Below are positions 9,525 through 57,202 of a DNA stretch of 64,000 bases, in pieces. The stretch spans positions 23,019 through 87,018 of the forward strand of contig WRHR01000003.1 of assembly GCA_009783145.1 (NCBI GenBank), given 5' to 3'. The notes under the pieces were generated by a model. It did not search any database. It saw nothing but the letters and a program-made list of their open reading frames with translations, and was not told the DNA's origin. A program made the position numbers and the translations under genes. Position 1 is the first letter of the stretch. Each line of letters starts with the position of its first letter. The DNA is from Alphaproteobacteria bacterium. Lineage in GTDB: Bacteria > Pseudomonadota > Alphaproteobacteria > Rs-D84.

Positions 9525-9530
9525 TTGTTG

Positions 9531-9722
9531 CCTTGCTCGCAGAGTAAAGATTTTTCGGCTTTGCCGAAAAATCAGAGTAACGCTCGCTGCGCTCGCAGAG
9601 TAGGAGAGTAAGAGAGTATCTATAACTCCCTACTCTTCTACTCTCTTACTCTAGCAAACGCTGTGCGTTTGCGTCACTCTGCCGGCGAAGCCGGCGTTAC
9701 TCTGCGCGCTTCGCGCGCTACC
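9531..9722. repeat. Family A element, copy A2 (near-identical to A1)
   Basis: Same architecture and the same position relative to the downstream pseudopilin paralog. Confidence 0.85.
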
Positions 9723-11160
9723 CGCAATTACTTCGTCCGTCCAATCTGCATTGCTTGATGTTTATGCGGCGTTCCAAGCGGCTCCAGAAAACATACTGGC
9801 ACACAAGATTCTGCGCCACCGAGTTATTATTGTAATAAGGCGCGCCGGGCAGCCCCGAAATAATATTTCTGCAGCCGACAGTCTCGCTGTCGTCATTCCC
9901 GGGATTCTTAAGTATCTCGAACGAGTCGTTGTCTATATTTTCGGATAAAACATCCGGCAGCACGGATACTCCGGCGGGGCGAACATCCAGGATTATCGCG
10001 CCGCTGCCGCCTGCCAACAGAGAGCTTGAAATCTGATCGCGAAGGGTCAGATAAGCGGCGGATACCGTCCGCGCTTCGATTCCGCTTTTCGTGGAATACA
10101 TCAGCTCGGTGCTGTCTATGAATACATCCTGCCCGCGCGAAGCGTTTATGAACCCTGAGATTTCAAGCTGTTCGGTATCAATGGAGACATTGCTTAAAAT
10201 GGCGTCGCCATGAATATCCCAGTCATAGGGGCCGACAAAGCTTGTACGCCCAGCCGCCATCGCAAGCGAATTTAACGAAGCTGATTCGGCCTCGACAGAG
10301 CCTATCAATCCATATCTGAACAAGGTATATGCGGAAAGGGACTTCGCGATCAAATCCCCGCGCGAAATATTCAGAGCTCCCGCGCTGTCGCGCGTTTGAA
10401 ATACGGCCTTGTTCGCGATCAAAAGCTCTATCTTGTTCTTGAATCTGCGGTCGTTGCTGGATCCCGTAATGGAAAGCGTGCCGAAGCTCGCGGTATCAAG
10501 CTCCGCATTTTTTGCGGAGAGCTGTGAAATGTTTTTCACATCATAGCCGCCCATATCAAGGTCCGTATGAAATCTGTTTCGCATAATATCCTTGGAGTTT
10601 CGCCGAATCAGCTCCGAAAAGTCATCATCGATCGGGATCAGGACATATATGGCGTCCAAATCAGGTCTTATGCCGAAGTCTTTCAGATTTTTCTCCCATC
10701 CGCCGATGCCATGTAGGATGCCATTGCGGGCGGCTTCGGCGGCGTCCGACCCGATGCGCGCCATCAGCTCGCGCCGTGCGCCTGCGGATAAATTACTGCC
10801 CTTTATTACAAGCAGCGCCAAAACGCCGTTCGCGTTTTTACCGGTCATCAAGGATATTTTCTGCCCCTGCGCGGTCTGTGGAATAAAGCCCAGCGGAAGG
10901 CCGAAGGGCTCTAAAAGATCGGAGAATTCGTCGCCGCCGGCGACACGGACGCCATACCGCAGGTCATCCTTGTTGTACCTGACGAACTCGCGGGCGGCGC
11001 GGGCGGCGCGGGCCACGTGCCTGCTTGATGCGGTCATAATCTGGTCGTTTCTGCGCTCGCTCAGCCGACCTGCCAAAAAGGGCATAAAGGCCATGACCAA
11101 GGCGATTGCCAGCAAAGCTTGCAGCAAAAAGTTTCCACGGGATTCGGTGTTCAAAAACAT
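9718..11160 (-). CDS. Large pseudopilin-like protein with class III-like signal, paralog 1
   Basis: ESRG|NFLLQALLAIALVMAFMPF has Gln at +5; shares LDMGGYDV and TELMYST motifs with paralog 2. Confidence 0.5.
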   Translation of the reverse strand: MFLNTESRGNFLLQALLAIALVMAFMPFLAGRLSERRNDQIMTASSRHVARAARAAREFVRYNKDDLRYGVRVAGGDEFSDLLEPFGLPLGFIPQTAQGQKISLMTGKNANGVLALLVIKGSNLSAGARRELMARIGSDAAEAARNGILHGIGGWEKNLKDFGIRPDLDAIYVLIPIDDDFSELIRRNSKDIMRNRFHTDLDMGGYDVKNISQLSAKNAELDTASFGTLSITGSSNDRRFKNKIELLIANKAVFQTRDSAGALNISRGDLIAKSLSAYTLFRYGLIGSVEAESASLNSLAMAAGRTSFVGPYDWDIHGDAILSNVSIDTEQLEISGFINASRGQDVFIDSTELMYSTKSGIEARTVSAAYLTLRDQISSSLLAGGSGAIILDVRPAGVSVLPDVLSENIDNDSFEILKNPGNDDSETVGCRNIISGLPGAPYYNNNSVAQNLVCQYVFWSRLERRINIKQCRLDGRSNCG

Positions 11161-13277: not shown

Positions 13278-15107
13278 ATGAAAATTAGAAATATCGCAAT
13301 AATCGCGCACGTAGACCACGGCAAAACGACCTTGGTGGATAATATGCTTAAACAAGCCGGAACGTTCGCTGCCCACGAGCGCGTCGTCGAACGCGTAATG
13401 GACAGCGGAGAAATAGAGCGCGAACGCGGCATTACTATTTCGGCCAAACCCACATCCGTCATATGGAAAGACTATAAGATAAATATAGTGGATACGCCCG
13501 GCCACGCGGATTTCGGCGGAGAGGTAGAGCGCATCTTAAGCATGGTCGACGGCGTGATTTTATTGGTGGATTCTGCCGAAGGCCCCCTGCCCCAGACCAA
13601 GTTCGTGTTATCAAAGGCGTTGAAGCTGGGCCTGCGCCCGATTGTTGCGATTAATAAAATAGATCGCCAGGACGCGCGTCCCGACGAAGTGCTGTCCGAG
13701 ACGTTCGACTTGTTCGATAAGCTGGGCGCGACGGACGCTCAACTGGATTTTCCTTATGTCTACGCTGTGGGTCGCGAAGGCAAAGCCTTTCGCGAGCTGA
13801 CCGACGAACGCGCAGATCTGACGCCATTATTCCAATTGATTATTGACCATGTGCCGGCACCCAACTGCGGCGTATCCGGGCGATGCGAATTGAACGCGCC
13901 GTTCCGCATGCTTGCGACGACCTTGGAGGCTGATCCGTATGTGGGGCGAATTCTGACCGGAAAAATTGAATCGGGAACCGTGCGCGTGGGCCAGGCGGTC
14001 AAGGCAATCAATATGCAAGGCGAATTCATAGAAAATGCGCGAATCACAAAAATCATAGAACACCGCGGCATAGAAAAAATATCCTTGGACGAGGCCAACG
14101 CCGGCGATATCGTCGTCGTCGCGGGCTTCGGCAAAGCGACCGTCGCGGACACTTTATGCGCGCCCGAGGTTACCGAACCGATTCCCGCATTGCCGATTGA
14201 CCCGCCGACTCTGACGATGACATTCTTCGTTAATACCAGTCCGCTGGCGGGAAGATCCGGCGGCAAGAAGCTGACATCGCGCATGATTGGCGAGCGTTTG
14301 TTTAAAGAAGCCGAAACGAATATAGCACTGCGCGTAGTACAATCCGCGAATAACGAAGCGTTCGAAGTATCGGGGCGCGGCGAATTGCAATTGGGGATAT
14401 TGATCGAAACCATGCGCCGCGAGGGGTTCGAGCTGTCGGTCAGCCGCCCGCGCGTTGTCTTTACTGAAGACGAAAACGGAAATCGTTTGGAGCCGATCGA
14501 AGATGTCGTAATCGATGTAGACGACGAATTCAGCGGCGTTGTGATTGAAAAAATGACCAAGCGCAAGGCGACGATTACCGAAATGAAGCCGTCGGGCGTC
14601 GGCAAGACGCGGATTGTGTTCAGCGCTCCGTCGCGCGGGCTGATCGGATACTTGTCCGAGTTCCGCACGGATACGCGCGGCACCGGAATCATGAACCGCA
14701 TCTTTGACAAGTACGATTTGTACCGCGGAGATATCGAGACATATCGTCCGGGAGTGCTGGTCAGCATGGAAAACGGCGCGGCGGCGACTTATGCTTTGTT
14801 CAATCTGCAGCCGCGCGGAACGCTGTTTATAGAGCCCCAAACGCAAGTTTATTCCGGAATGATTATCGGCGAGCATAGCAAGGAAAACGACTTGGAAGTG
14901 AACCCGATAAAAGGCAAAGAGCTGACCAATATGCGCTCTGTCACGGCGGATGAGAAATTGTTCTTAAGCCCGCCGCGCAAAATCTCGCTGGAAGAAGCGC
15001 TGTCTTATATACAGGACGACGAGCTTGTGGAAATCACTCCGCAGACGATACGGCTTCGCAAAAAAGAATTGGATTCCGGCGCGCGAAAAAAGACGAGGAA
15101 AAGTTAA
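13278..15107 (+). CDS. typA: Translational GTPase TypA/BipA
   Basis: AHVDHGKTTL, DTPGHADFGGEVER, NKIDR; the 609-aa length fits TypA rather than LepA or EF-G. Confidence 0.9.
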   Translation: MKIRNIAIIAHVDHGKTTLVDNMLKQAGTFAAHERVVERVMDSGEIERERGITISAKPTSVIWKDYKINIVDTPGHADFGGEVERILSMVDGVILLVDSAEGPLPQTKFVLSKALKLGLRPIVAINKIDRQDARPDEVLSETFDLFDKLGATDAQLDFPYVYAVGREGKAFRELTDERADLTPLFQLIIDHVPAPNCGVSGRCELNAPFRMLATTLEADPYVGRILTGKIESGTVRVGQAVKAINMQGEFIENARITKIIEHRGIEKISLDEANAGDIVVVAGFGKATVADTLCAPEVTEPIPALPIDPPTLTMTFFVNTSPLAGRSGGKKLTSRMIGERLFKEAETNIALRVVQSANNEAFEVSGRGELQLGILIETMRREGFELSVSRPRVVFTEDENGNRLEPIEDVVIDVDDEFSGVVIEKMTKRKATITEMKPSGVGKTRIVFSAPSRGLIGYLSEFRTDTRGTGIMNRIFDKYDLYRGDIETYRPGVLVSMENGAAATYALFNLQPRGTLFIEPQTQVYSGMIIGEHSKENDLEVNPIKGKELTNMRSVTADEKLFLSPPRKISLEEALSYIQDDELVEITPQTIRLRKKELDSGARKKTRKS

Positions 15108-15111: not shown

Positions 15112-15280
15112 GCGGGGTCGCGGTTCCCCTCCTGTGGAGGGGTGGATTGCGAGCGAAGCAAAGCAAGACGGGGTGGTTCTTGTAATGTGCGAGATTTTTC
15201 ACCCCACTCAAGGGGCAGGAAAACAACCACCCCCGCCGCGCGATAACGGCGCGATGCCCCTCCACAGGAGGGGAACACCT
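15112..15280. repeat. Family B palindromic element (ccctcctgtggagggg termini), intergenic copy B1
   Basis: Terminal IR cggttcccctcctgtggaggggtgg / cccctccacaggaggggaac; shares the internal gacggggtggttcNtgtaatgt block with B2. Confidence 0.8.
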
Positions 15281-22888: not shown

Positions 22889-24265
22889 TTATTTTCCCAA
22901 ACATAATTGCCCGAATACGGAATCGGCAACCTCCGATGCGCCGATGACGCCCAGAATCTGGCCTATATTGTCCGCCGCGCGGCGAATATGCTCGGAAAAC
23001 AAATCCATATTGGTCTTTTGTCCTTCAGCTTTTGCCAGTTCATCCGCAGCGGCTTGCAGATGCATGCGCGCGCGCTCATTAAGGGCGACATCGGACTGGG
23101 CGCCATCCAGACGGCTATGCACTTCCGCGCGAATTCGTTCCAACAGCTCTGGTATTCCTTCGCCGGTCAATGCCGAGACGCGAAACGCGAAACGCGAAAC
23201 GCGATTATTATTATCCAGCAAATCACATTTGTTTATGACGATTATTTCATTATCACGCGTTTCGCGTTTCGCGTTTCGCGTCTCGACCCTTATCACCAAA
23301 TCCGCCCTTTCAATTTCCTGGTTGGTTTTTTCAATCCCGATCTTTTCTATCGTATCTTGCGTCTCGCGCAAGCCGGCGGTATCCGCCAATCGCACAAGGT
23401 ACCCGTCTATATCGATTTCGGCCGACACCACGTCGCGCGTAGTGCCTGGGATTTCCGAAACTATCGCGCGCGATTCTCCAACCAAGCGATTGAACAGCGA
23501 CGATTTTCCGGCATTAACCGGCCCTATGATGGCTATATTGAAACCGCTGCGGATAGACCTGGCCGCGGCGCTGCGGGATAATGCTGCTGAAATTTCTTTA
23601 CCCAGGGCACGAGTGCGCGAGAGTATTGTCTCGCCGATATTCGCAGGAAGTTCTTCGGCCGGATAGTCCAGCATTGCGGCGGAATAGGCTGTGATTTCAA
23701 CCATTTGCAAGCGCCAGTTCTCATATACGGCACTGTCCGCGCCGGCGGCAGCGCGCAAAGCGCTTCGCCGCTGGGCATCAGTGCGCGAATCCAAAAGGGC
23801 CGCCAAGCCGTCGGCCTCTATCAAATCCATTTTGCCGTTATCGAAGGCGCGGCGGGCGAACTCGCCGGGATTCGCCAAGCGCGCCCCATACGCGCGCAGG
23901 GTCGCGAATAATTTTTCAATTACGGCCGCGGCGCCATGAACATGAAACTCAATAATATCTTCGCCGGTGAAACTGTGTGGGGCCTGGAAATAAATGGCAA
24001 TCGCGCGGTCAATCACATCGCTGCTTTTATCAACCAGGTCGGCGAGATACGCATGGCGGGGCAGCGGTTCCCCTCCTGTGGAGGGGTGGCTCGCGAATGA
24101 AATGAGCGAGACGGGGTGGTTCGTGTAATGTTCGCAGTTGGCTAAACCACCCCGGCCCTTCGGGCCACCCCTCCACAGGAGGGGAACCGCTGCCCCGCTG
24201 ACGCGCACGACCGCAACGCCCGCTTTTCCATGTCCCGAAGATAATGCGAAAATCGTATCGGTCAT
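22889..24265 (-). CDS. mnmE: tRNA modification GTPase MnmE, carrying two in-frame palindromic-element insertions
   Basis: FTGEDIIEFHVHG N-domain, G-domain GPVNAGKSSL, NKCDL, C-terminal CLGK. An extra 47-aa segment (VPLLWRGG...GGEPLP) is encoded by element B, and the RVETRNAKRETR/RVSRFAFRVS segments by element I. Confidence 0.88.
   Translation of the reverse strand: MTDTIFALSSGHGKAGVAVVRVSGAAVPLLWRGGPKGRGGLANCEHYTNHPVSLISFASHPSTGGEPLPRHAYLADLVDKSSDVIDRAIAIYFQAPHSFTGEDIIEFHVHGAAAVIEKLFATLRAYGARLANPGEFARRAFDNGKMDLIEADGLAALLDSRTDAQRRSALRAAAGADSAVYENWRLQMVEITAYSAAMLDYPAEELPANIGETILSRTRALGKEISAALSRSAAARSIRSGFNIAIIGPVNAGKSSLFNRLVGESRAIVSEIPGTTRDVVSAEIDIDGYLVRLADTAGLRETQDTIEKIGIEKTNQEIERADLVIRVETRNAKRETRDNEIIVINKCDLLDNNNRVSRFAFRVSALTGEGIPELLERIRAEVHSRLDGAQSDVALNERARMHLQAAADELAKAEGQKTNMDLFSEHIRRAADNIGQILGVIGASEVADSVFGQLCLGK
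23175..23275. repeat. Family I (gcgaaac)n palindrome, copy I1, inside mnmE G-domain coding region
   Basis: gagacgcgaaacgcgaaacgcgaaacgcg ... cgcgtttcgcgtttcgcgtttcgcgtctc. Confidence 0.8.
24057..24197. repeat. Family B element, copy B2, 141 bp in-frame inside mnmE
   Basis: ggggcagcggttcccctcctgtggaggggtgg ... ccacccctccacaggaggggaaccgctgcccc; 141 bp equals 47 codons. Confidence 0.85.
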
Positions 24266-27842: not shown

Positions 27843-27962
27843 ATTGTCATTGCGAGGAGCATAAGCGACGAAGCAATCCAGTGAATAAATCTGATTTTGT
27901 TCCTGATAAAAACCCTTCACTTTTCTGCTATAATCCACTCGTACAACCCAAAGGAGGGAATT

Positions 27963-28280
27963 ATGAAAGATATGAAAATGGACAAGGAGTGGCTTGGATA
28001 CAAAATATGGAAGCTGAAACAAAAACGGAACATATTGTTCCGCGCGTTCCTGATAAACTACGTAGTTATTTTGCTGGCTTGGCTGGTGTCGATGACGCCG
28101 TTTTATATGGGCTTGCTGATGCATTTCATGCCGGGCATTAACGCCATCGAGGCGAATATGTACCTGATGACCTTGTTCGGAATCTGGAAGATAGCGGGAG
28201 TGGTCCTGTTCCTGATACCGGCGTTGGCGATATGGTGGGAACAGTGCATGATGCAGAAATACTATGACATGAAGAAATAA
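27963..28280 (+). CDS. Small membrane protein, hypothetical
   Basis: RBS aaggaggg, start at MKDMKMDKEW, three predicted TM helices. Confidence 0.4.
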   Translation: MKDMKMDKEWLGYKIWKLKQKRNILFRAFLINYVVILLAWLVSMTPFYMGLLMHFMPGINAIEANMYLMTLFGIWKIAGVVLFLIPALAIWWEQCMMQKYYDMKK

Positions 28281-28722: not shown

Positions 28723-29109
28723 CTATTTCTTTACAGTTATCTTCCCAACCGCGTCATAGCCAAAGTACTTGTTAATCCGCGCACGGAATTCCTCTGTTCT
28801 GTATGATAATTCCATTGCAAACGCGGGCTGCACCGCTTTCAGCGTTATGTTGAATTTTGTAGGGGCGCATTTTTGCGCCCTTTTAATCGGTCGCTTTGCG
28901 ACCGACGGGGCACAAGAATGTGCCCCTACACTACGTATCCCTTGCAGCTTCGCCAAACGCGCCAAGTCCGCGCCTATGATTTCGTTCCACCGCGCGGCCA
29001 AGTCTGCATCAGACGCGCGCACGCCGAATATTTTCAGCAAGCCTCCGAACGCCCCGCCCAAGCTTTGCGGGCGCGAAGTTCGGAGTGAAAGATTAGGTTT
29101 TGCTTTCAT
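28723..29109 (-). CDS. DciA-like (DUF721) protein with in-frame palindromic insertion
   Basis: C-terminal LKAVQPAFAMELSYRTEEFRARINKYFGYDAVGKITV fits the DUF721/DciA family; the segment VGAHSCAPSVAKRPIKRAQKCAPT is encoded by hairpin element F. Confidence 0.5.
   Translation of the reverse strand: MKAKPNLSLRTSRPQSLGGAFGGLLKIFGVRASDADLAARWNEIIGADLARLAKLQGIRSVGAHSCAPSVAKRPIKRAQKCAPTKFNITLKAVQPAFAMELSYRTEEFRARINKYFGYDAVGKITVKK
28858..28930. repeat. Family F nested-hairpin element in-frame in dciA-like gene
   Basis: tgtaggggcgcatttttgcgccc..ggtcgctttgcgacc..ggggcacaagaatgtgcccctaca. Confidence 0.75.
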
Positions 29110-29165
29110 TTACGATTTACGATTTACGATTTAGGGAGTCAAATCTTAAATCGTAAATCTTAAAT
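29108..29165. repeat. Family J (acgattt)n palindrome with GGGAGT core, copy J1
   Basis: ttacgatttacgatttacgatttaGGGAGTcaaatcttaaatcgtaaatcttaaatt; abuts the dciA-like start codon and the mltA stop. Confidence 0.8.
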
Positions 29166-30748: not shown

Positions 30749-30776
30749 AAACCGGGCTTTGCCCGGTTTTTATTTT
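30747..30776 (+). terminator. Rho-independent terminator after secB
   Basis: aaaaccgggctttgcccggtttttatttt. Confidence 0.75.
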
Positions 30777-30780
30777 GCGT

Positions 30781-30893
30781 TCTTTTCAGAGTGTTCGCTC
30801 GCTTCGCGCGCAGAGTAGAAGATTAAGAGAGTATCTATAACTCTACTACTCTCTTACTCTGATTTTGCGAAGCAAAATCGTTACTCTTGTTCT
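30781..30893. repeat. Family A element, copy A3
   Basis: cagagtagaagattaagagagtatctataactctactactctcttactctg plus gcgaagc hairpins. Confidence 0.8.
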
Positions 30894-30901
30894 TGAAATC
30901 G

Positions 30902-31672
30902 CTATGCGATTTCAAGAACCAACCCGCAGTGGTCGGTGGGTTTTGCATCCATTCTCGGGCGAGGATCGATTTTACAATGCTTTACCAGCTTTTGCGCGGC
31001 ATGATTCGCCAGGAAATAGTCCAGGCGCAGGCCATGGTCTTTGCCGATAGAGCCGCCGCGGTATCCTATCCAAGTCCAGGGGCTTTCCTCGTTCGGGTTA
31101 TATTTTCTATAACAATCAAGCCAGCCGTCATCAAGCCATTCCTGCATGATTTTTCGCGCGTCGGGGGCAGAGATTGACGATCCCTCGTATTGTTTCGGAT
31201 TCCAAACGTCGCGGTCTTCTATTGCGACGTTAAAGTCCCCGCCCAATATCACGGGCTCTTCACTTTTCAGATAATGGGCAATATGCCGTCCAAAATGCTT
31301 CATCCACTCTATTTTATACTGAAACTTGGGCGATTCCTCGCTTTCCCCGTTCGGCATATATACGTTGATAAGCCGTATACGTCCGTCTATCACACATTCC
31401 AAAAACCTAGCGGCCGGATCGGGATAATTCGGCAGGCCGCGAACGACGTCTTCTATGGAGTGTTTGGAGAAAACCGCAACCCCGTTCCAGGATTTCTGTC
31501 CGAAAACTTTGATGTTATAGCCCAGATGCTCAAAGACTATAAAAGGAAACCCATGGTCTTCCACTTTTAATTCTTGCAGGAGAATCACGTCATATTCGCG
31601 ACTTTCGGCGATTTTCATAAAGCTATCCATATGCGCCCGGATGGAGTTGATGTTAAGAGAGAGAATTTTCAT
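30902..31672 (-). CDS. xth: Exodeoxyribonuclease III
   Basis: MKILSLNINSIR, LQELK, GGDFNV, LDYFL motifs of the EEP/Xth family. Confidence 0.88.
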   Translation of the reverse strand: MKILSLNINSIRAHMDSFMKIAESREYDVILLQELKVEDHGFPFIVFEHLGYNIKVFGQKSWNGVAVFSKHSIEDVVRGLPNYPDPAARFLECVIDGRIRLINVYMPNGESEESPKFQYKIEWMKHFGRHIAHYLKSEEPVILGGDFNVAIEDRDVWNPKQYEGSSISAPDARKIMQEWLDDGWLDCYRKYNPNEESPWTWIGYRGGSIGKDHGLRLDYFLANHAAQKLVKHCKIDPRPRMDAKPTDHCGLVLEIA

Positions 31673-31683: not shown

Positions 31684-31784
31684 ATGGCAAATGGCAAATG
31701 TAAAATGGCAAATGTAAGGTGATAAAGAGATAAACTGTGCTCTTACCTTCCACATTTTACATTTGCCATTTGCCATTTGCCATC
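31684..31784. repeat. Family C (caaatgg)n palindromic element, intergenic copy C1
   Basis: atggcaaatggcaaatgtaaaatggcaaatgtaagg ... ccttccacattttacatttgccatttgccatttgccat. Confidence 0.8.
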
Positions 31785-31829: not shown

Positions 31830-33410
31830 ATGAACATGTATCAGTTTCTGGAATCGGCCGTATCGGAGGTACCGAACGACCTGTTTCTTACGCGCGAAAA
31901 GATAACTTACGCGCAGTTCAACGATTTGGTGAAAAAGCGCGCCGCGACCTTGGCCCGTATGGGCGTAAAGAAAGGCGACGCTGTCGGAATCCTTTCGCAT
32001 AATATATGGGAGTTCCCCCTGTCATTGTTCGCAATCTGGTATCTGGGCGCCTCGGTCCTGATGCTGGACACGAACCTTACTCCGTACGAGTATGACAATA
32101 TGACAAAGGTTACGGGGACCAAGCTGGTTCTGGCCGAAAAAAGCTTTTTCTATAAGTCCGCGGGATTCAAGTTCCACGACATTACAGAAAAAGACAAGGA
32201 AGCGGACCCGAAGCTAAAGCCGGCGCATGTGGAATCCGAAGACATCGCGACGCTGTCATTTACATCGGGTTCTACTGGAATGCCGAAAGTGGTGCCTTTA
32301 ACGCACTATAACCTGACGGAATGCGCGCTGTCGCTGGAGGATATGAGCGAATGGCTGAACCGCGGCGATACATTGTACGGATTTCTTCCGATGTACCATG
32401 TATTCGGCTTTGCGGTGGAGATTCTGGCGACGATTCATTACCGCGCGAACGTTCTGCTGCAAAGCACGATCAACCCAAAAGATATCCTGGACGACTTCAA
32501 AACATACCGGCCGCAGATTATTCCTGCGGTGCCAAGACTGTGGGAGGTCTTCCGCAACAAGATTATCGACGGGCTAAAGCAGAAAAGGCTTTGGTGGCTG
32601 GCGTCATTCGTCCTGAAATTCGGGCCGTTCCTTAAAAAAATCGGGCTCGGGTTCTTGGTGCGGAAAATTCAAGAGCCTGTGCTGGCGGTATTCGGCGGAA
32701 GGGCGCGCCTGTTAATAGGAGGCGGCGCGGCTGTAAAGCCAGAGGTGGAAACTTTTTACGAGCGCCTGGGGCTGACCTTTATACAAGGATATGGTCTGAC
32801 TGAAACAGTGGGGCCGATTTGTATATCCAAGCCTGGCAAATGCCGCCTTCCGTTCGCATTCGGGGGACCGATTACGAACAACGAGTGCGAAATCCGCGGA
32901 AAGAACGCGGAAGGCATCGGGACATTGTGGATGCGCGGGCACCAGGTGTTCGGCGGATACATGAATAACCCGGAAGCAAATTCGGAATCGTTTGATGAAA
33001 GGGGTTTCTTCAACACAGGTGACTTGGTGTCGATGGATTGCAATGGAGAATTGCATTTTCATGGACGTCAAAAGCAGGTGATTGTGCTGGATTCGGGAAA
33101 GAACGTGTATCCGGACGAACTGGAGGCATTGTTCATATTGATTCCTGGCGTAAAGAATGTTGCGGTGTTTGAGCATACTGTCAAAGACAAAACCGTGGCT
33201 TACGGCGTGTTTCAGGTTGAAGAAGGCATGACTTTTGAGAAGTTGGAAAAGGCGGTGGCCATCGCGAATAAAAAGGTGGCGAGTTACAAGTGGGTCACGC
33301 ATTTTGCGATGACGACCAAGGATCTGCCGCTGACCAGCACTCAGAAGATAAAGCATCATGTGGTGCGCGAGCGTCTGATTGCCGGCGAATATCCGACGAA
33401 ACATAATTAA
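31830..33410 (+). CDS. AMP-dependent acyl-CoA synthetase/ligase
   Basis: FTSGSTGMPKVV AMP-binding motif, GYGLTET, C-terminal lid. Confidence 0.8.
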   Translation: MNMYQFLESAVSEVPNDLFLTREKITYAQFNDLVKKRAATLARMGVKKGDAVGILSHNIWEFPLSLFAIWYLGASVLMLDTNLTPYEYDNMTKVTGTKLVLAEKSFFYKSAGFKFHDITEKDKEADPKLKPAHVESEDIATLSFTSGSTGMPKVVPLTHYNLTECALSLEDMSEWLNRGDTLYGFLPMYHVFGFAVEILATIHYRANVLLQSTINPKDILDDFKTYRPQIIPAVPRLWEVFRNKIIDGLKQKRLWWLASFVLKFGPFLKKIGLGFLVRKIQEPVLAVFGGRARLLIGGGAAVKPEVETFYERLGLTFIQGYGLTETVGPICISKPGKCRLPFAFGGPITNNECEIRGKNAEGIGTLWMRGHQVFGGYMNNPEANSESFDERGFFNTGDLVSMDCNGELHFHGRQKQVIVLDSGKNVYPDELEALFILIPGVKNVAVFEHTVKDKTVAYGVFQVEEGMTFEKLEKAVAIANKKVASYKWVTHFAMTTKDLPLTSTQKIKHHVVRERLIAGEYPTKHN

Positions 33411-33440
33411 AAACGCGGGCAAAGCCCGCGTTTTTAATTA
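33410..33440 (+). terminator. Rho-independent terminator after acyl-CoA synthetase gene
   Basis: aaaaacgcgggcaaagcccgcgtttttaatt. Confidence 0.75.
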
Positions 33441-33563
33441 GAGTAGTAGAGTAAGAGAGTAAGAGAGTAAAAGAGTAAATAATATCTATAACTCTACTAC
33501 TCTCTTACTCTGCAAACGCAAAGCGTTTGCGTTACTCTGCGAGCGAAGCGAGCGCTACTCTCA
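33440..33563. repeat. Family A element, copy A4 (supplies tsaE C-terminus and stop)
   Basis: agagtagtagagtaagagagtaagagagtaaaagagtaaataatatctataactctactactctcttactctg plus gcaaacgcaaagcgtttgc and gcgagcgaagcgagcgc. Confidence 0.8.
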
Positions 33564-33972
33564 ATTTTCTGCCGCCCTCAAACTCCGTAATAAAAATATG
33601 AATAGTATTGGCGGGCAGGAAATTGGTGGCAATCTCCGGCCATTCTATCAAGGTAATATCATTTGCAATCGCATGCGACAGACCAATTTCTTCCAATTCC
33701 GAAACATCGGTGATGCGATAAAGGTCAAAATGGGAAATACATTTGCCATTTGCCATTTGCCATTTGCCTTCGTATGTCTGAACCAAGGTAAAGGTAGGAC
33801 TCGGCACGACGGTATCCGCGCCGCATAGGGTCTGAATAATCGCGCGCGCAATCTCGGACTTTCCCATGCCCAAGTCGCCATGCAGGGCCACCACACACGG
33901 AGCATGCAGAGTTTTCGCAAACTCCCCCGCCCACGCGCGCGTTTCATCAATGTTTTTTAGAATTATTTCCAC
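33532..33972 (-). CDS. tsaE: tRNA threonylcarbamoyladenosine biosynthesis protein TsaE
   Basis: GDLGMGKSEIARAI P-loop, SPTFTLVQTYE, HFDLYR. GTG start. The GKWQMANGK segment is encoded by a (caaatgg)n repeat and the last 11 aa plus stop by an A element. Confidence 0.85.
   Translation of the reverse strand: MEIILKNIDETRAWAGEFAKTLHAPCVVALHGDLGMGKSEIARAIIQTLCGADTVVPSPTFTLVQTYEGKWQMANGKCISHFDLYRITDVSELEEIGLSHAIANDITLIEWPEIATNFLPANTIHIFITEFEGGRKLRVALASLAE
33738..33772. repeat. Family C (caaatgg)n tract in-frame in tsaE
   Basis: acatttgccatttgccatttgcc encodes GKWQMANGK on the minus strand. Confidence 0.8.
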
Positions 33973-34020
33973 TCTTTTACTCTCCTACTCTTTCACTCTG
34001 CCGGCGAAGCCGGCGTTACT
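33962..34020. repeat. Family A half-element, copy A5 (between uvrB stop and tsaE GTG start)
   Basis: actcttttactctcctactctttcactctgccggcgaagccggcgttactc. Confidence 0.7.
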
Positions 34021-36004
34021 CCAACAACAAATCATCTTCCATCTTGCGGATGGTGTCGCGGATGGCGGAGGCTTCTTCGAACTCCAAATTCTCGGCATGC
34101 CTGAACATCTTCCTGCGCAAGTCCGCGATTGTCTTCTCCAAGCTTGCCCTATCCATAACCCCGCCGGATTTAGTATAAACAAATTGTCGCTTCTTATCTG
34201 TTTTCTCAATCCGGTCGCCGACCTCATTGAATACTGATTTTATAATAGTCTTCGGCACAATGCCATGCTTTTCGTTATAGGCCATCTGTTTTTCACGGCG
34301 ACGCGAAGTCTCGTCCATTGCAGCGCGCATGCTGTCCGTTATTGTATCCGCGTACAGAATCACACGCCCATTGCTATTGCGCGCAGCGCGCCCGATTGTC
34401 TGTATCAAGCTGCGGGTGCTGCGCAAGAATCCTTCCTTGTCTGCGTCCATGATTGCAACCAGCTCGCACTCCGGAACATCCAACCCTTCGCGCAAAAGGT
34501 TGATTCCAACCAATACATCGAACTTTCCCATTCGCAACTCGCGCAATAACTCTATGCGCTCCAAAGTCTCAATATCGCTGTGCAAATACCGCGCGCGAAC
34601 GCCATGCTCGTTTAAATAATCCGTCAGCTGTTCGGACATTTTTTTGGTGAGAGTTGTTATAAGAACGCGGCCTTTGGTTTTCTTTATCTCGTGCAATAAA
34701 TCATCTACTTGGTTCTTTGTCGGGCGAACTTCGACGACAGGATCCAACAGTCCTGTCGGGCGGATTACCTGCTCGGCAACGATTCCGCCGGCTTGCGTTA
34801 GTTCCCATTCCGCGGGAGTTGCGGATACGAATATGGTCTGCGGGCGCATGGCGTCCCATTCCTCGAACCGCAGCGGGCGGTTGTCCGCGCACGAAGGCAA
34901 ACGAAAACCGTATTCATACAACGAGCGTTTTCTCGCGGCGTCTCCCTTGGACATAGCGCCGATTTGCGGCACGGAAACGTGAGATTCATCCACAAACAAA
35001 ATCGCGTCTTTGGGCAGGTACTCGAATAAAGTCGGAGGCGGCTGGCCGGGCGCGCGTCCCGACAAATACCGCGAATAGTTCTCTATCCCGCGGCAGATGC
35101 CCGTCGCCTCCATCATCTCTATGTCGTAATTGGTGCGCTCGCGCAGGCGCTGTTCCTCCACATACTTCATATTTTCATGAAAGTAATCCAAGCGCGGCTG
35201 CAGGTCTTTTCGTATCTCCCCTATCGCTTGCAAGACCGTCGGCTGAGGCGTTGCGTAATGGGTATTTGGATATACCGCGATATGGTCCAGCTTATGCAGC
35301 TTGGCGCCGGTTAGTGTATCGAACTCCCAGATTTCCTCTATCTCGTCGCCAAAGAACGAAATCTTCCATCCGCGGTCTTGGCTGTGCGACGGAAAAATGT
35401 CCAAGGTATCGCCGCGAACTCGAAAATCCCCGCGGTCAAAGCCCACTTCATTGCGCTTGTATTGAATATCAACCAAAGCGCGCATTACATCCTTGGCGCT
35501 TAATTTGTCGCCCGCGCCCAGCACCAGTTTCATCCCAGAATATTGCTCCGGAGAACCCATTCCGTAAATGCTGGATACGCTTGAGACCACAATAACATCG
35601 CGCTCTTCCAGCATCGCGCGCGTGGCGCTGTGCCGCATGCGGTCCAGCTGATCATTTACGGATGCATCCTTATCGATATAAGTATCCGTGACTGGCAAGT
35701 ATGCCTCTGGCTGATAGTAATCGTAATACGAAACGAAGTATTCCACATGATTGTGCGGGAAAAAGGACTTCATCTCGGTATAAAGCTGCGCGGCCAGAAT
35801 CTTGTTTGGCGCCATTATCAGTGCCGGCCGACCCATATTTGCAATCACATTCGCCATGGTAAAGGTCTTTCCCGTGCCGGTGGCCCCCAGCAATACCTGG
35901 GACCGGCGGCCTTCTTTCAGGCCAGCGGCCAATTCGGCAATGGCCGCCGGTTGGTCGCCTGATGGCTTGTAGCTGCTTTGAAGATTAAAATTTGTTTTTT
36001 TCAT
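34016..36004 (-). CDS. uvrB: Excinuclease ABC subunit B
   Basis: [11 protein letters not shown]alker A, helicase motifs, C-terminal UVR domain ([19 protein letters not shown]). Confidence 0.93.
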
Positions 36005-36066
36005 TTTAACTGAGAACTGAAAACTGAGAACTGAGAGCTTAGTTTTCAGCTTTCAGTTTTCAGTTG
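36005..36066. repeat. Family H (ctgaaaa)n palindrome, copy H1
   Basis: ttaactgagaactgaaaactgagaactgagagcttagttttcagctttcagttttcagtt; abuts the uvrB start codon. Confidence 0.8.
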
Positions 36067-46693: not shown

Positions 46694-47269
46694 ATGAAAT
46701 TCAAATTACTATATTTCGGAGAGCTTCGGACCAACCCGAAAAAGCGGTCCCAGCACATCGCAAACATACGCATGCAGTTCCATCCTCAGTTGAAAAAGCT
46801 GGTTGAAAACAGCCCCTGGAACAACATGCAGAAATATATGATGCCGGGGGCCACGAAAAGCCCGATTTCAACTCGGCATGTCGGCGGAATCGACTGGAAT
46901 CCTATTATTACGCCGAACCTGAAGCTGTTGGCGGAATTGGACGTATTGCTGATGCATCCGCAGATAGTGGGACTGGGACGCACCGATATAGACAACAGAA
47001 TGAAGACTTTGCTGGACGCATTGCGCAGCCCTCAGAACGAGCATGAAATAGGCGAGAACACGCCGAAAAATATGGGGCCGATTTATACTCTGCTGGACGA
47101 CGACCATCTGGTTACGAAAATATCGGTTAATACATCGCACTTGCTGGCGCCGCAAATGTTGGGGACCCGGCTGCAAGCCGACGACGGCGAAGAAAAGGTG
47201 TTTTTGCTGATAGATGTGAATGTAAGGGTGGAAGAAGGGAATTTGGAGAATTTGCCGTTTATGGTGTAA
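46694..47269 (+). CDS. Hypothetical protein
   Basis: Start at MKFKLLYF; the upstream ORF-track extension is repeat I2-derived. Confidence 0.4.
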   Translation: MKFKLLYFGELRTNPKKRSQHIANIRMQFHPQLKKLVENSPWNNMQKYMMPGATKSPISTRHVGGIDWNPIITPNLKLLAELDVLLMHPQIVGLGRTDIDNRMKTLLDALRSPQNEHEIGENTPKNMGPIYTLLDDDHLVTKISVNTSHLLAPQMLGTRLQADDGEEKVFLLIDVNVRVEEGNLENLPFMV

Positions 47270-47285
47270 AAAATCCGGCGCTTGC

Positions 47286-47413
47286 CGGATTTTTTAGAGT
47301 AGAAGAGTAACGCCGGCTTCGCCGGCAGAGTAAGAGAGTAGTAAAGTATTAGATTACTCTTTAACTCTCTTACTCTTCTACTTTGCAAACGCGAAGCGTT
47401 TGCGTTACTCTGG
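47286..47413. repeat. Family A element, copy A6
   Basis: agagtagaagagtaacgccggcttcgccggcagagtaagagagtagtaaagtattagattactctttaactctcttactcttctact plus gcaaacgcgaagcgtttgc. Confidence 0.8.
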
Positions 47414-47423
47414 CTTACCGCGC

Positions 47424-48167
47424 CTAGGCGCGGTATAACCCTCCGTTTACATGAATCGTCTGCCCGGTAATATATGACGCTACATCGGAAGCCAGGAACA
47501 GGGCCGCATTTGCGATATCGGACGGCTCGCCAAAACGGCCGGCCGGAATCTGCGCCAAGTACTGCGCTTTCAATTCTTCCGGCAAAACATCAGTCATGGG
47601 GGTTTTGATAAAGCCCGGCGCGATGCAGTTCGCAGTGATTCCGCGCGATGCGACCTCGGCCGCAATGGATTTCGTCATCGCGACGATGCCGCCTTTGCTT
47701 GCCGCATAGTTCGCCTGACCCGGGCCTCCGATTGTGCCGATGATGGACGACATATTTATGATGCGCCCATACCTTGCCTTCATCATGGGAATAATTGCAG
47801 CGCGGCATAATTGAAAAGTAGCACGCAAATTGGTGTTAATCACATCGTCGAACTGCTCGTCCGTCATGCGCATCAACAGGGTATCTTTCGTAATGCCGGC
47901 ATTATTGACCAGAATGTCTATTTTCCCGGCCTTCTCGATGGTTTCCGCGACTAAACGGTCGGCTTCACCCAATTTGCTCAAATCTGCAACAATTGGAATT
48001 ACATTTGCCATTTTACATTTGCCATTTGCCATCTCTTCCAGTTTCGCGGCGTCTCTGCCCGTAATAATAACTGTTGCGCCCTGGCCCGCGAAACTGGAAG
48101 CTATCGCTTCGCCGATTCCGCCTGTGGCGCCGGTGATTAATGCAACTTTGTCTTTGAGTAACAACAT
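47424..48167 (-). CDS. fabG: 3-oxoacyl-[acyl-carrier-protein] reductase FabG
   Basis: KVALITGATGGIG, NNAG, YAASKGG SDR motifs; an extra MANGKCKMAN segment is encoded by a (caaatgg)n repeat. Confidence 0.88.
   Translation of the reverse strand: MLLLKDKVALITGATGGIGEAIASSFAGQGATVIITGRDAAKLEEMANGKCKMANVIPIVADLSKLGEADRLVAETIEKAGKIDILVNNAGITKDTLLMRMTDEQFDDVINTNLRATFQLCRAAIIPMMKARYGRIINMSSIIGTIGGPGQANYAASKGGIVAMTKSIAAEVASRGITANCIAPGFIKTPMTDVLPEELKAQYLAQIPAGRFGEPSDIANAALFLASDVASYITGQTIHVNGGLYRA
48003..48034. repeat. Family C tract in-frame in fabG
   Basis: catttgccattttacatttgccatttgccat encodes MANGKCKMAN. Confidence 0.75.
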
Positions 48168-49405: not shown

Positions 49406-49468
49406 AATTAGCGATTAGCAATTAGCAATTATCAGGGAGTTTAATTGCTAATCGCTAATTGATAATTG
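49406..49468. repeat. Family G (aattagc)n palindrome with GGGAGT core, copy G1
   Basis: aattagcgattagcaattagcaattatcaGGGAGTttaattgctaatcgctaattgataattgctaatt. Confidence 0.8.
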
Positions 49469-49499
49469 CTAATTAAAAAACCGGCAAAGCGCGGATTTT

Positions 49500-50737: not shown

Positions 50738-52377
50738 TACACTCCCGGCTGGTCCAGTAGTCCCACCCAGCGTTCCAGCTCCTCAACGCCGATGATGCCT
50801 TTCAGCATCAGCTCTATCGCCGCCTCTTTCAACGTGCGCCCGTCCAGTTCTTCCAGCCAATATTTTACCGCATCCGCGGAATTCCCCGCAAGCGCCAGTT
50901 CTAGGAATCTATTGTCTGTGATGATAATCTCGCCCGCTTTTATGCGCCCTATGGTGCCCTTTTCCGCGCAGTACTTGCATCCGTCGCCGCGGAAGTAAGT
51001 CTGGCGCAGGCCTGTTTCTCCGAACGCTTCCAGCACGCGCTTGTACGCGGGATGATCGGGAAAATTAACCAGCATTTTTCTGCACTGCGGGCAAAGCTTG
51101 CGGAACAAGCGCATCGACACCAGCCCGCGCATCATGGTTTCGTCTTTCAGCTTGAACCCTTCCACGCCCATATCCAAAAGGCGGGTAAGCGCCGCCATTG
51201 CGGAATTGGCATGCAAGGTGGTCCAAACGCTGTGCCCCGACAATGCCCCCTTTACCGTCAATTGAGCCGCGCTTAAGGTGCGGATTTCGCCGACCATCAT
51301 CACATCCGGATCGCTGCGCAGGGCGGATTGCAAAGCTTCGGTGAATTTCTCTTCCCGCTGCTCTTCGTTGTTCGCATTAACGACTGGAATCTGATGGCTG
51401 CCGAAAATGCGCCTTTCCGCCGGGTCTTCGATCGTAATCAGATTGATTTCATAATCGCGCTCTTTCAGCATAAGCGACATATTCTGGAAAAGAGTCGTGG
51501 ACTTTCCGCTGCTGGTCGGACCCGCGACCACGATAAGGCCGGTCGGGAAAGACCGCATGCGCATCAAAAGATCGCGCTCGTACTCGCCGAATTCCTGCTC
51601 GGTCTTTATGGTCTCGGCCGGGTTGTCGTACAGCAGGCGCATCACCACATAGCGCGATCCGAACGCGATCGGATTGAACTGCATTCTAATGCCCATAATG
51701 CCGGCCGGAAGATACAGGTCCCGCGTGCCGCGCAAAGGAGTGCGCCCGTCTTTCTGCGCGCTCTGATACTCGTTCTGCGCATAGTTGGAATTGGACTGGT
51801 CGGCGGATGCGAATGCTGCGCGGACGAAAGACTCGCCCCATTGAGAGTTGTATTCCAACACGGTCTGCATGCTGCCGTCCATGCGGAAATAAACGGTGGT
51901 CTGGTCGGCGACCTCTATATGAATATCGGATACTTTCAGGCTTGCGGCGCGCGCGATTATATCAACGAAGTCCTTTTGCATCTGGTTATCGTAATCCAAG
52001 GGCGCGCGTGATGCGATGCCCGCGAACTTCGCGTCGTTAAATTTGTATATGCCGGAAATAAGGCCCAGATCGCTGTAAAAAGGCTCTTTGGCCGTGCGCT
52101 TTTCTTTTTTAAGCAGCTCCAGGAACGAAATCACCCGCCCGTCATAGCGGTGAGTGCGAGAAATGACGATTTCGCCGCCGGAAAAGTACGCGAGCAAGTT
52201 CTGCGTATCTCTTGCCACTTCCAGCGCGCCGCCATTCGCGGTCAGCAAGGCGTTTGTGTTTGAGAACAAATACTCGATGATTTCTTTTTGCGTCGACGCG
52301 CCGATATTATTCGGCACGCTTGGGGCCGCGCTGCGCGCGGGCGAAGGAGTATTTTCAAGATTCTTTCGTGCTGACAT
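50734..52377 (-). CDS. GspE/PilB-family secretion/assembly ATPase
   Basis: GPTSSGKSTTL Walker A, MVGEIR, TLHANSA, C-terminal CPQC..x24..CKYC zinc motif. Confidence 0.8.
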   Translation of the reverse strand: MSARKNLENTPSPARSAAPSVPNNIGASTQKEIIEYLFSNTNALLTANGGALEVARDTQNLLAYFSGGEIVISRTHRYDGRVISFLELLKKEKRTAKEPFYSDLGLISGIYKFNDAKFAGIASRAPLDYDNQMQKDFVDIIARAASLKVSDIHIEVADQTTVYFRMDGSMQTVLEYNSQWGESFVRAAFASADQSNSNYAQNEYQSAQKDGRTPLRGTRDLYLPAGIMGIRMQFNPIAFGSRYVVMRLLYDNPAETIKTEQEFGEYERDLLMRMRSFPTGLIVVAGPTSSGKSTTLFQNMSLMLKERDYEINLITIEDPAERRIFGSHQIPVVNANNEEQREEKFTEALQSALRSDPDVMMVGEIRTLSAAQLTVKGALSGHSVWTTLHANSAMAALTRLLDMGVEGFKLKDETMMRGLVSMRLFRKLCPQCRKMLVNFPDHPAYKRVLEAFGETGLRQTYFRGDGCKYCAEKGTIGRIKAGEIIITDNRFLELALAGNSADAVKYWLEELDGRTLKEAAIELMLKGIIGVEELERWVGLLDQPGVY

Positions 52378-52452
52378 TTACGATTTACGATTTGCGATTT
52401 ACGAATTACGATTTATGGGGAGTCAAATCGTAATTCGTAAATCGTAAATTTT
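52378..52452. repeat. Family J element, copy J2
   Basis: tttacgatttacgatttgcgatttacgaattacgatttatgGGGAGTcaaatcgtaattcgtaaatcgtaaatttt; lies between the GspE-like start and the PilP-like stop. Confidence 0.8.
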
Positions 52453-56194: not shown

Positions 56195-57133
56195 TCATTT
56201 AATTTTTCCTTCTAGCCATTTCCAAAATGCCGGCTCTATTGTTGTTTCCAGTTTCGCAAATTTGATTTTCTTTTGCGCGATAGGCGGCAAACGAATCCAA
56301 TCTTTTTCAGTGGTTATCAATTCTGCTTTTTCTTTTACCGCTAATGCGAACAATTTTTTCAAATCGGCATCAGAATATTGATAATGATCTGGGAAAGAAA
56401 TCGTTTTTACCGGCCTTTTCGGCAATTTTTCAAAAAACTTCTTCGGATATCCGATACCGGCAAAAGCTATGAACGGCAAATGGCAAATAGAAGATGGCAA
56501 ATGTGTCTCGCTTTTTGCCAAAAACACCGGCTTTTTGTACCTTTTTGCAGCAATTTCCACTTCTGATTCCCCATTTGCCATTATTATCACCGCATCCGCT
56601 CTCTTTATTGCGCTCAGCGGTTCCCGCAAAGGCCCGGCAGGCAGAATGAACCCATTTCCAATGCCGATTTTCCCGTCAAAAACAGGGATGGAAATATCTT
56701 TTTTTACGGTCGGATTTTGAAATCCGTCGTCCATAATGATGTGTGAAAAGCCGGCCTTTTCGACCATTTTTATGCTTTTCAACCGGTCCTTTCCAACAAA
56801 GACTGGCAAACCGGACGCGGCCAACATCTTCGCCTCATCGCCGACATCCGCTGCCGTATCATTTGACCCGACTTTTCCGGCCTTTTTGCCTTTATACCCC
56901 TGCATAACTATTGCAGAACTGGGGAACAAGCGGGCAACTTCGCGGACTATCGGGGTTTTCCCGACGCCGCCGGCAAGAATATTGCCTATGCAAATTACCG
57001 GCCTTTTTGCACTTTTTTGCCAAAAAGACCGGTAAAAAAAGACTGCGCGGCTGGTCAAAAGATATAGCCAAGACACCGGCAGCAAAAGCCACGCGATAAT
57101 ATTTCTTTCAAGAAACCAATTCGGTGTTTTCAT
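56195..57133 (-). CDS. lpxK: Tetraacyldisaccharide 4'-kinase LpxK
   Basis: GNILAGGVGKTP P-loop, SRGYKG-like, IMDDGFQN; a THLPSSICHLPF segment is encoded by a (caaatgg)n repeat. Confidence 0.85.
   Translation of the reverse strand: MKTPNWFLERNIIAWLLLPVSWLYLLTSRAVFFYRSFWQKSAKRPVICIGNILAGGVGKTPIVREVARLFPSSAIVMQGYKGKKAGKVGSNDTAADVGDEAKMLAASGLPVFVGKDRLKSIKMVEKAGFSHIIMDDGFQNPTVKKDISIPVFDGKIGIGNGFILPAGPLREPLSAIKRADAVIIMANGESEVEIAAKRYKKPVFLAKSETHLPSSICHLPFIAFAGIGYPKKFFEKLPKRPVKTISFPDHYQYSDADLKKLFALAVKEKAELITTEKDWIRLPPIAQKKIKFAKLETTIEPAFWKWLEGKIK
56473..56504. repeat. Family C tract in-frame in lpxK
   Basis: ggcaaatggcaaatagaagatggcaaatg; a further catttgccat lies at 56571-56580. Confidence 0.7.
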
Positions 57134-57202
57134 TTTAAACTGAGAGCTGAAAACTGAAAACTGAGAACCAGATTTCAGTTCTCAGTTTTCAGTTTTCAGT
57201 TT
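57134..57202. repeat. Family H element, copy H2
   Basis: aactgagagctgaaaactgaaaactgagaaccagatttcagttctcagttttcagttttcagtt; supplies the DUF374 gene stop codon and abuts the lpxK start. Confidence 0.8.

Follow-up and report, generated by a model that had tools for sequence, protein, structure and literature searches.

The stretch of DNA analysed here, which we call the window, comprises 64,000 nucleotides (nt) of contig WRHR01000003.1 from an uncultured gut alphaproteobacterium whose clade is related to Candidatus Enterousia. Near its centre lies tsaE, a small essential tRNA-modification gene (the t6A ATPase subunit), whose coding sequence includes, in frame, two segments drawn from the genome's own short repeat families, with further repeats on either side. 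The gene occupies 33532-33972 on the minus strand in the list of open reading frames (ORFs) and runs from a GTG start (33970-33972) to a TAA stop, encoding 146 residues. Its product matches the Pfam family TsaE (PF02367; E = 1.3e-31, 109.6 bits against a cut-off of 26.6) and retains the Walker A sequence (GDLGxGKS), HFDLYR and IEWP, all invariant in our ortholog alignment, along with every other residue that is invariant in the clade. Its relatives in the Protein Data Bank are 1htw, 9zw5 and 6n9a_E, the closest solved structures being HI0065/YjeE and other TsaE chains, and an AlphaFold2 model shows a confident fold, with a predicted local distance difference test score (pLDDT) of 89. Upstream, at a distance of 43 nt, lies uvrB (34016-36004, minus strand), and a gene for an AMP-binding enzyme (31830-33410, plus strand) converges on tsaE from the other side. 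An inverted repeat with a 17-bp stem (33404-33440) forms a bidirectional hairpin resembling an intrinsic terminator, which the AMP-binding gene and the uvrB-tsaE transcript share. Because no promoter-like site was found between uvrB and tsaE and one is present upstream of the uvrB leader, the two genes are likely to be co-transcribed.

Repeats of this kind could in principle reflect misassembly or a decaying pseudogene. Two short contigs do stop inside the repeat element at the 3' side of tsaE (L002 at 33448 and L003 at 33509), as is expected for repeats, at which assemblers break. Against an artefact stand independent assemblies that are identical across the gene: the DNA of the locus agrees at 100% in three of them, each from a different sample, and all five contigs that were read for the protein, including these three confirmed at the DNA level, encode the same 146 residues. 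The ORF is moreover intact, with all clade-invariant residues and a confident fold. We therefore regard an artefact as hardly credible, and the repeat-bearing locus is genuine.

Within the gene, Tandem Repeats Finder (TRF) detects (CATTTGC) x 4.1 at 33740-33768, with 100% matches. On the coding strand the tract reads TAC GAA (GGCAAAT)4 GT ATT TCC and encodes Y-E-G-KWQMANGKC-I-S-H-F-D-L-Y-R. Compared with the YDG-IS loop of most orthologs, this is an in-frame insertion of 27 nt, K70-C78 (KWQMANGKC; 33739-33765, minus strand), located in the beta-hairpin loop directly before HFDLYR, and it bears out an earlier note on this DNA that had placed an in-frame tract next to that block. In the structural model, strands 64-68 and 78-83 pair as a hairpin with the insert at its tip; this loop and the last six residues of the tail are the only parts predicted with low confidence. 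The strand that follows this loop terminates at the Walker B aspartate, within HFDLYR, and ordinary P-loop geometry would for this reason place the loop tip away from the nucleotide site.

A protein search returned thousands of TsaE relatives at 60-86% identity, among which we compared species-level loci, 81 for the loop and 76 for the tail. By a genome scan, these relatives belong to Candidatus Enterousia and to related, uncultured Alphaproteobacteria of the gut, some of them termite-gut bins that carry the label Rickettsiales. The segment from SPTFT to HFDLYR spans nine residues (LVQNYDGIS) in 71 of the 81 loci and 18 in the window, and the tail after the conserved G-R-K spans 4-5 residues in 54 of the 76 loci and 10 in the window. 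Since most orthologs have the short loop and the short tail, both features appear to be lineage-specific additions, of nine residues in the loop and about five (ALASL) near the C-terminus. Orthologs free of repeats share neither the internal nor the C-terminal sequence, and the earlier suggestion that this gene was remodelled by repeats thus survives the comparison on which it depended.

The internal tract is a solo arm of a dispersed heptamer-array family. Five GCAAATG arrays occur in the window (31684-31714, 31760-31783, 33740-33768, 48002-48032 and 56475-56503), two of which face each other as inverted arms in the spacer from xth to the AMP-binding gene (31684-31783), while tsaE, fabG and lpxK each hold a solo arm. 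The fabG arm and the left arm of the intergenic pair have a common pattern of unit variants, ATGGCAAATGGCAAATGTAAAATGGCAAATGTAA, with the variant third unit TAAAATG; given this common variant, they are copies of one another and not products of independent slippage. The earlier note had regarded the tsaE tract as a mobile palindrome, an idea that we dropped: folded alone as RNA, this non-palindromic arm gives no significant structure (z = -0.5). We also considered pairing of the arm with the downstream native ISHF codons (11 nt, one mismatch), for which the fold was no better than shuffled and the corresponding complementarity was absent in the relative L089.

A unit of 7 nt within a coding sequence does shift the frame when one copy is gained or lost, and a perfect tract would favour slippage, such that the array might act as a phase-variation switch that turns tsaE off and on. 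Like simple-sequence contingency loci, it is a tandem repeat in a coding sequence with a unit length that is not a multiple of three. Unlike them, it lies in a housekeeping gene, shows no copy-number variation (the tract is identical in all assemblies found, that is, in five contigs with identical protein and three samples with 100% identical DNA), and has an array size, four units, that is common throughout the window, non-coding arrays included. Relatives such as L004 moreover carry decayed versions of the tract. There is no apparent switch, we rejected the locus as a candidate for phase variation, and we judge this explanation very improbable.

At its 3' side, tsaE runs into a complete composite element of what we term the A family. 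This element, A4 (33440-33561), consists in order of a (AGAGTAAG)x5 arm, a loop, a (CTTACTCT)x3.4 arm, the hairpin GCAAACGCAAAGCGTTTGC, the linker GTTACTCT, the hairpin GCGAGCGAAGCGAGCGC and TACTCT. Its arms are complementary 8-mers, five of the AGAGTAAG type against CTTACTCT, and its outer hairpin GCGAGCGAAGCGAGCGC is imperfect, with a stem that pairs only if two G.A mismatches are allowed. Alignable copies lie at approximately 8086-8280, 9525-9724, 30749-30905 and 47270-47430. The minus-strand RNA of 33400-33575, which comprises A4 and the neighbouring terminator, is predicted to fold at -78.4 kcal/mol (z = -9.6).

The last nine codons of tsaE, R138-E146 (RVALASLAE), and the TAA stop (33532-33561, minus strand) lie inside the A-family homology, with the stop in the linker GAGTAAC. 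The earlier note had derived LRVALASLAE and the stop from the element, which holds for R138-E146 and the TAA and fails for residue L137 (TTG, 33562-64), which falls outside the homology. The part that appears to be new is a putative in-frame insertion of 15 nt, A140-L144 (ALASL; 33541-33555, minus strand), which corresponds to the body of the GC-rich mini-hairpin module GCGCTCGCTTCGCTCGC. Three more copies of this module (CGCTCGCTTCGCTYGC between AGAGT units) lie at 8143-8158, 9581-9596 and 30796-30811, and the CGCTCGCTTCGC hairpin module is found at four loci in the window. When ALASL is removed, the gene ends in AAA TTG AGA GTA GCA GAG TAA (KLRVAE*), which aligns at 15/21 with the L005 end AAA TTA AAA GTC CAA GAA TAA (KLKVQE*). 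By this alignment, R-V and E-stop plausibly occupy ancestral positions, even though they now resemble A-family units. Most economically, the net change is explained by a 15-nt hairpin having been inserted in frame, with two codons left between it and the stop; this reconstruction is plausible though not unique, because ortholog tails vary. The element would thus have supplied part of the C-terminus, as had been suggested, whereas R-V and the E-stop fit the positions seen in orthologs.

On the other side, a right-half A element, A5 (33971-34021), is composed of (nnTACTCT)x3.8, the hairpin GCCGGCGAAGCCGGC and GTTACTC. It matches the 8205-8259 copy, in its right half, at 91% identity and aligns with the right halves of the other copies; folded alone as RNA, it shows no significant structure. 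As the earlier note had described, A5 begins at the tsaE start and reaches the uvrB stop: it makes up the entire 43-nt spacer, overlaps the GTG by 2 nt and contains the uvrB TAA (34016-34018, minus strand) within its linker GTTACTC. It also holds an AGGAG Shine-Dalgarno-like motif (33982-33986, minus strand) 9 nt upstream of the GTG. We considered whether the element supplies the uvrB stop and rejected this, because UvrB of L086, L087 and L004 likewise ends in ...DDLLL(L)E*, with GAA TAA or GAG TGA. The E-stop is thus native, and A5 leaves UvrB unchanged.

The same spacer differs among relatives. In L088 it is 3 nt long, and the tsaE ribosome-binding site is likely to be a GGAG that belongs to the native end of uvrB and precedes the ATG by 6 nt. 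In L089 it is 10 nt long and made of (GAGTGTT)3 continuing from the GAGTGA uvrB end. One or two extra genes, including an RgpF-family gene, lie between uvrB and tsaE in L004 and L086. Given that L004, the sister lineage of the window, has approximately 1.36 kb at this place, the 43-nt half-element of the window is plausibly the scar of a deletion that removed genes still seen in sister lineages.

Across the window's clade, different repeats have rewritten the TsaE loop in almost every lineage. In L089 it reads TAC (GAGACGC)4 GT ATT and in L090 TAC GAG, four GGAATAA-type units and GA ATA; L004, whose protein is 86% identical, has a decayed tract of the window's length (GGCAGAA GCGCGAC GTCAGAA GGCAGAA GT), and L008 has CACGAAT-type units. 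Other loops are occupied by hairpins: a full heptamer cassette with the complete inverted pair (GGGACTA)n ... (CCCCAGT)n in L087, three perfect hairpins over 93 nt in L086, a multi-hairpin insert of ~177 nt in L085, and a 15-bp hairpin in L059 whose right arm is formed by the native I-S-H codons. In L088 the loop GAA GGC AAA GAT AGG (YEGKDRIS) resembles a single unit. The 3' end of the gene varies in a similar way, with (AGCTTAT)n giving AYNL* in L086, a AATGACAG-type 8-mer array giving EMTE* in L085, and a TAGCGGA-type array starting from the TAG stop, directly after the last codons (SISG), in L089. In a neighbour-joining tree of ~130 residues, every sequence with an insert belongs to the window's clade, where short DG forms are interspersed. 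Loop inserts accompany 7- or 8-nt arrays in the flanks (6/10 against 9/71 loci; Fisher p = 0.002, phylogeny not corrected). The repeated remodelling of tsaE by mobile palindromes that had been suggested is thus upheld in part, as recurrent rewriting by lineage-specific repeats; the window's own internal tract is no palindrome, and mobility of the transposon type is not supported.

Heptamer repeats are enriched across the whole window. Ten perfect period-7 arrays of at least 25 nt occur, compared with none in 50 Markov-1 simulations, and perfect arrays of periods 5, 6, 8, 9 and 10 are absent from the window; period 7 also accounts for 24/32 TRF arrays, and approximately 15 different heptamer families can be distinguished within the 64 kb. 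Two types of repeat recur. Cassettes of the first type have arms of about four tandem copies of a 7-nt unit (8-nt in the A family), usually as an inverted, hairpin-forming pair; repeats of the second type are GC-rich mini-hairpins with GAA/TTC-type loops, joined by AGAGTA-type linkers. The A family, with five full copies and one half copy in the window, all six with the loop TATCTATA, is a mosaic of about six hairpin types with heterogeneous stems, its elements overlap coding ends, and the linkers beside its hairpins, AGAGTAAC or AGAGTAGC, give GTAA and sometimes GTAG. An Rfam scan of the whole window returned two tRNAs only, and no known RNA family covers the elements.

An exact scan of metagenome contigs with a 17-mer from the A-family core gave 91 matches, and only those in L093 and L150 have flanking arrays; the remaining matches, which lack such arrays, look like chance and were set aside. 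L093 and L150 (JGI metagenome Ga0123353, termite gut) have the A family with the loop TATCTATA, the hairpin types of the window and the ACAGAGC heptamer, L150 being a related species at 70-77% nt identity. The presence of the family on these contigs points to a termite-gut origin of the lineage.

Many arrays stand at gene boundaries; some directly adjoin a start codon, namely the ATG of uvrB, that of L086 dciA and those of the genes that begin at 29109, 52377 and 57133, and others overlap stops. Three cassettes between tandem genes, each directly before a start codon (29108-29165, 49406-49474 and 52376-52449), have the arm units ATTTACG, AATTAGC and ATTTACG and the nearly alike loops GGGAGTC, GGGAGTT and GGGGAGTC. 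Hairpins of AACTGAG/AAACTGA units end no more than 3-4 nt from the ATG in the uvrB leader (36008-36065), at the gene starting at 57133 (57137-57203) and at L086 dciA (14778-14841). Orthologous spacers of the window and L086 (31679-31829 and 12170-12373; 29110-29164 and 14784-14892, respectively) hold heptamer cassettes with unrelated units.

Such placement is what one might expect of selected functional elements, with RNA hairpins acting as terminators or insulators, stabilisers or translational controls at starts, and with the TsaE peptides being adaptive. The matching intergenic positions of window and L086 cassettes suggest an architecture that is conserved while the sequence is not; TAACTGA repeats, which have been proposed as translation regulators, are placed immediately upstream of start codons as are the arrays at uvrB, dciA and other genes (PMC4679880); A4 folds very strongly; and A5 offers an AGGAG 9 nt before the tsaE start. 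The internal tract, however, is unstructured and its peptide is modelled with low confidence, the insert is missing from most orthologs and different in every lineage, and a conventional terminator already follows A4. Taken together, we consider a functional origin quite unlikely.

Repeats also enter or end other genes. In fabG, the GCAAATG arm at 47999-48032 encodes MANGKCKMAN and the window protein has 247 residues (+6 relative to 241; orthologs mostly have 241-242), with some orthologs bearing longer inserts at the same site. The conserved FabG end GRF* is replaced in the window by YRA*, which comes from the left arm of the palindrome TACCGCGCC-TA-GGCGCGGTA (47424-47445) beside the A copy at 47286-47413. 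The last five codons of xth (VLEIA) and its stop are the left arm and loop of a 14-bp hairpin beside the copy A3, and in relatives the protein has equal length and different last residues. The earlier note had asked whether A-element ends elsewhere also create stop codons (30781-30893, 47286-47413); in these two genes repeat ends do affect the gene end. The paralogs ending at 8274 and 9718 have TAG stops that overlap the outermost hairpin by one base. A 110-residue membrane protein of L150 ends in ...MRAKFAE*, with GCA GAG TAA inside an A unit and the same AE* as in TsaE; its window ortholog (27897-28280) ends in QKYYDMKK* before an ordinary terminator. Repeat ends thus do reshape C-termini, usually with no change in length; a clear extension is seen in tsaE. 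The co-occurring relative L086 has the same cassette (AAGTGTG arms; peptide KCEV.NVKCE...LHTSHST) in frame in both uvrB (8248-8325) and ruvA (1158-1225). At this UvrB site L085 carries a REP-like insert of unrelated sequence, and the window and L087 carry none.

Further coding repeats were seen in the window. The mnmE gene (22889-24265, minus strand) contains an inverted in-frame pair, (CGAAACG)n/(CGCGTTT)n, at 23174-23204 and 23256-23285, whose peptides, ETRNAKRETRD and RVSRFAFRVS, bracket the NKCD G4 motif, and the region for its N-terminal domain holds a REP-like insert (PLLWRGGPKGRGG...; 24056-24101) whose DNA is 87% identical to intergenic 15112-15157. A rluD-like gene has an inverted in-frame ACAGAGC pair (5478-5504 and 5570-5595) around ~65 nt of coding sequence, and the GCAAATG arm of lpxK (56475-56503), on the opposite strand, encodes ICHLPF. 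Two N-terminal signal peptides, MKKFALCSLLFALCACG (lipoprotein-like) and MKNKIFILYSLFFILFVCA, have a hydrophobic core that is encoded by a T-rich heptamer array (2892-2923 and 6146-6176), such that repeat DNA may supply export signals. Between 6760 and 11160 lie three tandem paralogs (441, 416 and 480 residues) with no Pfam match, whose 5' regions are 92% identical and which are separated by full A elements.

We propose that short repeats built from hairpins and tandem arrays proliferate in this lineage and survive only at permissive sites, a reading to which we give a probability of roughly 60%. The repeats would multiply within the genome and turn over fast, persisting only where selection tolerates them: in intergenic spacers, often touching stop or start codons, and at permissive sites in proteins, if the piece is free of stops and its length is a multiple of three. 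At tsaE, a solo GGCAAAT arm would have added nine residues at the tip of a beta-hairpin; a 15-nt mini-hairpin two codons before the stop would have lengthened the tail by five residues and left the gene ending in repeat DNA; and a half-element would have replaced the uvrB spacer and provided an AGGAG beside the start codon. The frame is kept throughout, and the protein additions are most likely neutral passengers. As the mode of spread we favour copying from another repeat copy via short matches to native sequence, together with slippage, over a dedicated transposase.

Several observations weigh against this proposal. No mobilising enzyme was found, either in the window or among the genes annotated in the flanks of L085 and L086: when 10 unassigned ORFs were scanned against Pfam, among them the three tandem paralogs and an array-flanked ORF (46694-47269), neither a transposase nor a nuclease was returned, and no RAYT (Y1 transposase) was seen among these ORFs or in the flanks (64 kb covered). 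Set beside a MITE, with its terminal inverted repeats and target-site duplication, the cassettes do have long inverted arms, and no duplication is evident at the uvrB and ruvA insertions of L086, the filled sites compared with empty ones. The window, L004 and L090 have an identical loop layout of 33 nt (GAA/GAG, four 7-nt units and two bases before the Ile codon), and L089, at 30 nt, lacks the leading codon; this common geometry could reflect one old insertion followed by concerted unit change. The association statistics ignore phylogeny, and the tree is based on ~130 residues. Finally, several arrays begin in native codons (in L089, GAGTGA running into (GAGTGTT)3; in L086, the xth end TIN*; in L088, GAA GGC AAA), which fits on-the-spot slippage as well as copying.

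This last point leads to a purely local origin, in which a native seed of 7-8 nt (e.g. GAGTAA where uvrB ends, or GGCAAA(T) within a loop of the YEGK type) expands by slippage and inverted partner arms arise and are kept matched by intrastrand template switching, with no movement between loci. Consistent with it, the single unit in the loop of L088 comes from the same sample as the window, the L089 array runs on directly from the uvrB end, the xth and tsaE ends of L086 are unit 1 of their arrays, and the terminal codons of xth and fabG in the window form one arm of a perfect hairpin. Confinement of the enrichment to period 7 would fit an idea of slippage related to the polymerase footprint (quoted in PMC4692102), and homogenisation of inverted repeats by template switching is established (PMC7202029, PMC8604942). 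Yet a local origin has to accommodate one heptamer with the same internal variant unit at unlinked loci (fabG and the intergenic arm), six A-family copies with the loop TATCTATA, and one cassette in both uvrB and ruvA of L086; slippage alone leaves identical families at several sites unexplained. We consider it unlikely that all of these repeats arose in place.

In our preferred reading, proliferation with survival at permissive sites, both lines of evidence could find a place. Shared families and variant patterns argue for copying between loci, and arrays that start in native codons, along with the L088 seed, argue for local nucleation; primed copying combined with slippage and arm-to-arm template switching would reconcile the two. 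As for the mobile elements of the earlier note, arrays that start in native codons also fit on-the-spot growth or microhomology-guided copying. More tentatively, the elements may represent an undescribed kind of bacterial repeat: hairpin cassettes, with arms of about four copies of an arbitrary 7- or 8-nt unit, that spread free of a transposase by match-guided polymerase template switching, and keep their regularity through slippage and arm-to-arm correction. In one termite- and animal-gut clade of Alphaproteobacteria, they would then be a constant source of new loops, termini, cores of signal peptides, ribosome-binding sites and stop codons, essential genes included. We offer this broader view as a possibility at rather long odds.

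The behaviour of these repeats is closest to that of Rickettsia palindromic elements (RPEs), which are reportedly selfish DNA in protein-coding genes, and which are ~100-150 nt long, with family consensus sequences and palindromic potential. RPEs are mentioned in PMC10969869 and PMC1779305. Like them, the repeats described here are short, dispersed alphaproteobacterial sequences that occur both between genes and in frame in essential genes, at sites tolerated by the fold, and that add peptides and leave the protein intact. The family of the tsaE tract is present elsewhere in the genome (the five GCAAATG loci), and the segment is missing from orthologs while frame and fold are kept. Unlike RPEs, the pieces in the window are 15-30 nt long, their arms are about four copies of a 7- or 8-nt unit, and the units vary by family and lineage; the tsaE piece is a solo arm that lacks palindromy (z = -0.5), and the C-terminal 15 nt are only part of a 17-nt imperfect hairpin. 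We claim a likeness of behaviour, drawn apart from sequence comparison, and not membership among RPEs.

A second comparison is with the REP/BIME mosaics of enterobacteria and pseudomonads, with their REPINs and RAYT transposases. In layout the A family resembles these: it is a mosaic of a few GC-rich hairpins in varying order and orientation, with short linkers that give GTAA and sometimes GTAG beside the hairpin, placed at gene 3' ends and between convergent genes. It differs in that its linkers form 8-mer arrays that make a long hairpin, its stems are heterogeneous, coding ends are overlapped, and a RAYT gene was not seen in the DNA examined.

A third comparison is with heptamer arrays, among them STRR, the heptamer tandem arrays of heterocystous cyanobacteria. 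Others are TAACTGA in Beggiatoaceae, cyanobacteria and Bacteroidetes (PMC4679880) and the GGGAATC/GGGGAYT repeats of Xanthomonas and Nostoc (PMC4692102), which are known beside start or stop codons and occasionally in ORFs (PMC4679880, PMC4692102). The arrays of the window share with all of these the 7-nt unit, the small number of copies, the mostly intergenic position within bases of a start codon or over a stop codon, the occasional inverted pairs between convergent genes and the occasional presence at ORF peripheries; the AACTGAG/AAACTGA arrays upstream of uvrB (36008-36065) also resemble TAACTGA repeats. They differ from known heptamer arrays in forming ~15 families within the window and hairpin cassettes, and in being inserted within TsaE, FabG, MnmE, LpxK and the RluD-like protein and not only at peripheries. 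New here are the organisation into cassettes, the large number of unit families, and the fact that conserved housekeeping and core enzymes of the window's clade have received insertions repeatedly.

These findings describe, in a lineage from which it was not previously known, very short repeats being written repeatedly into essential coding sequences at the same permissive spots, and they extend the TAACTGA-type repeat of Beggiatoaceae, cyanobacteria and Bacteroidetes to an alphaproteobacterium. They also serve as a warning for annotation: where these metagenome-assembled genomes show odd peptides of low complexity or shifted gene ends, these are genuine, not errors. With many families, filled and empty sites and sister lineages, the clade is a compact system in which to ask why 7-nt repeats are over-represented in some bacteria. 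The inserts provide a natural map of insertion-tolerant sites in TsaE, UvrB and FabG, and they show how non-coding repeats can turn into parts of peptides, cores of signal peptides, stop codons and ribosome-binding sites.

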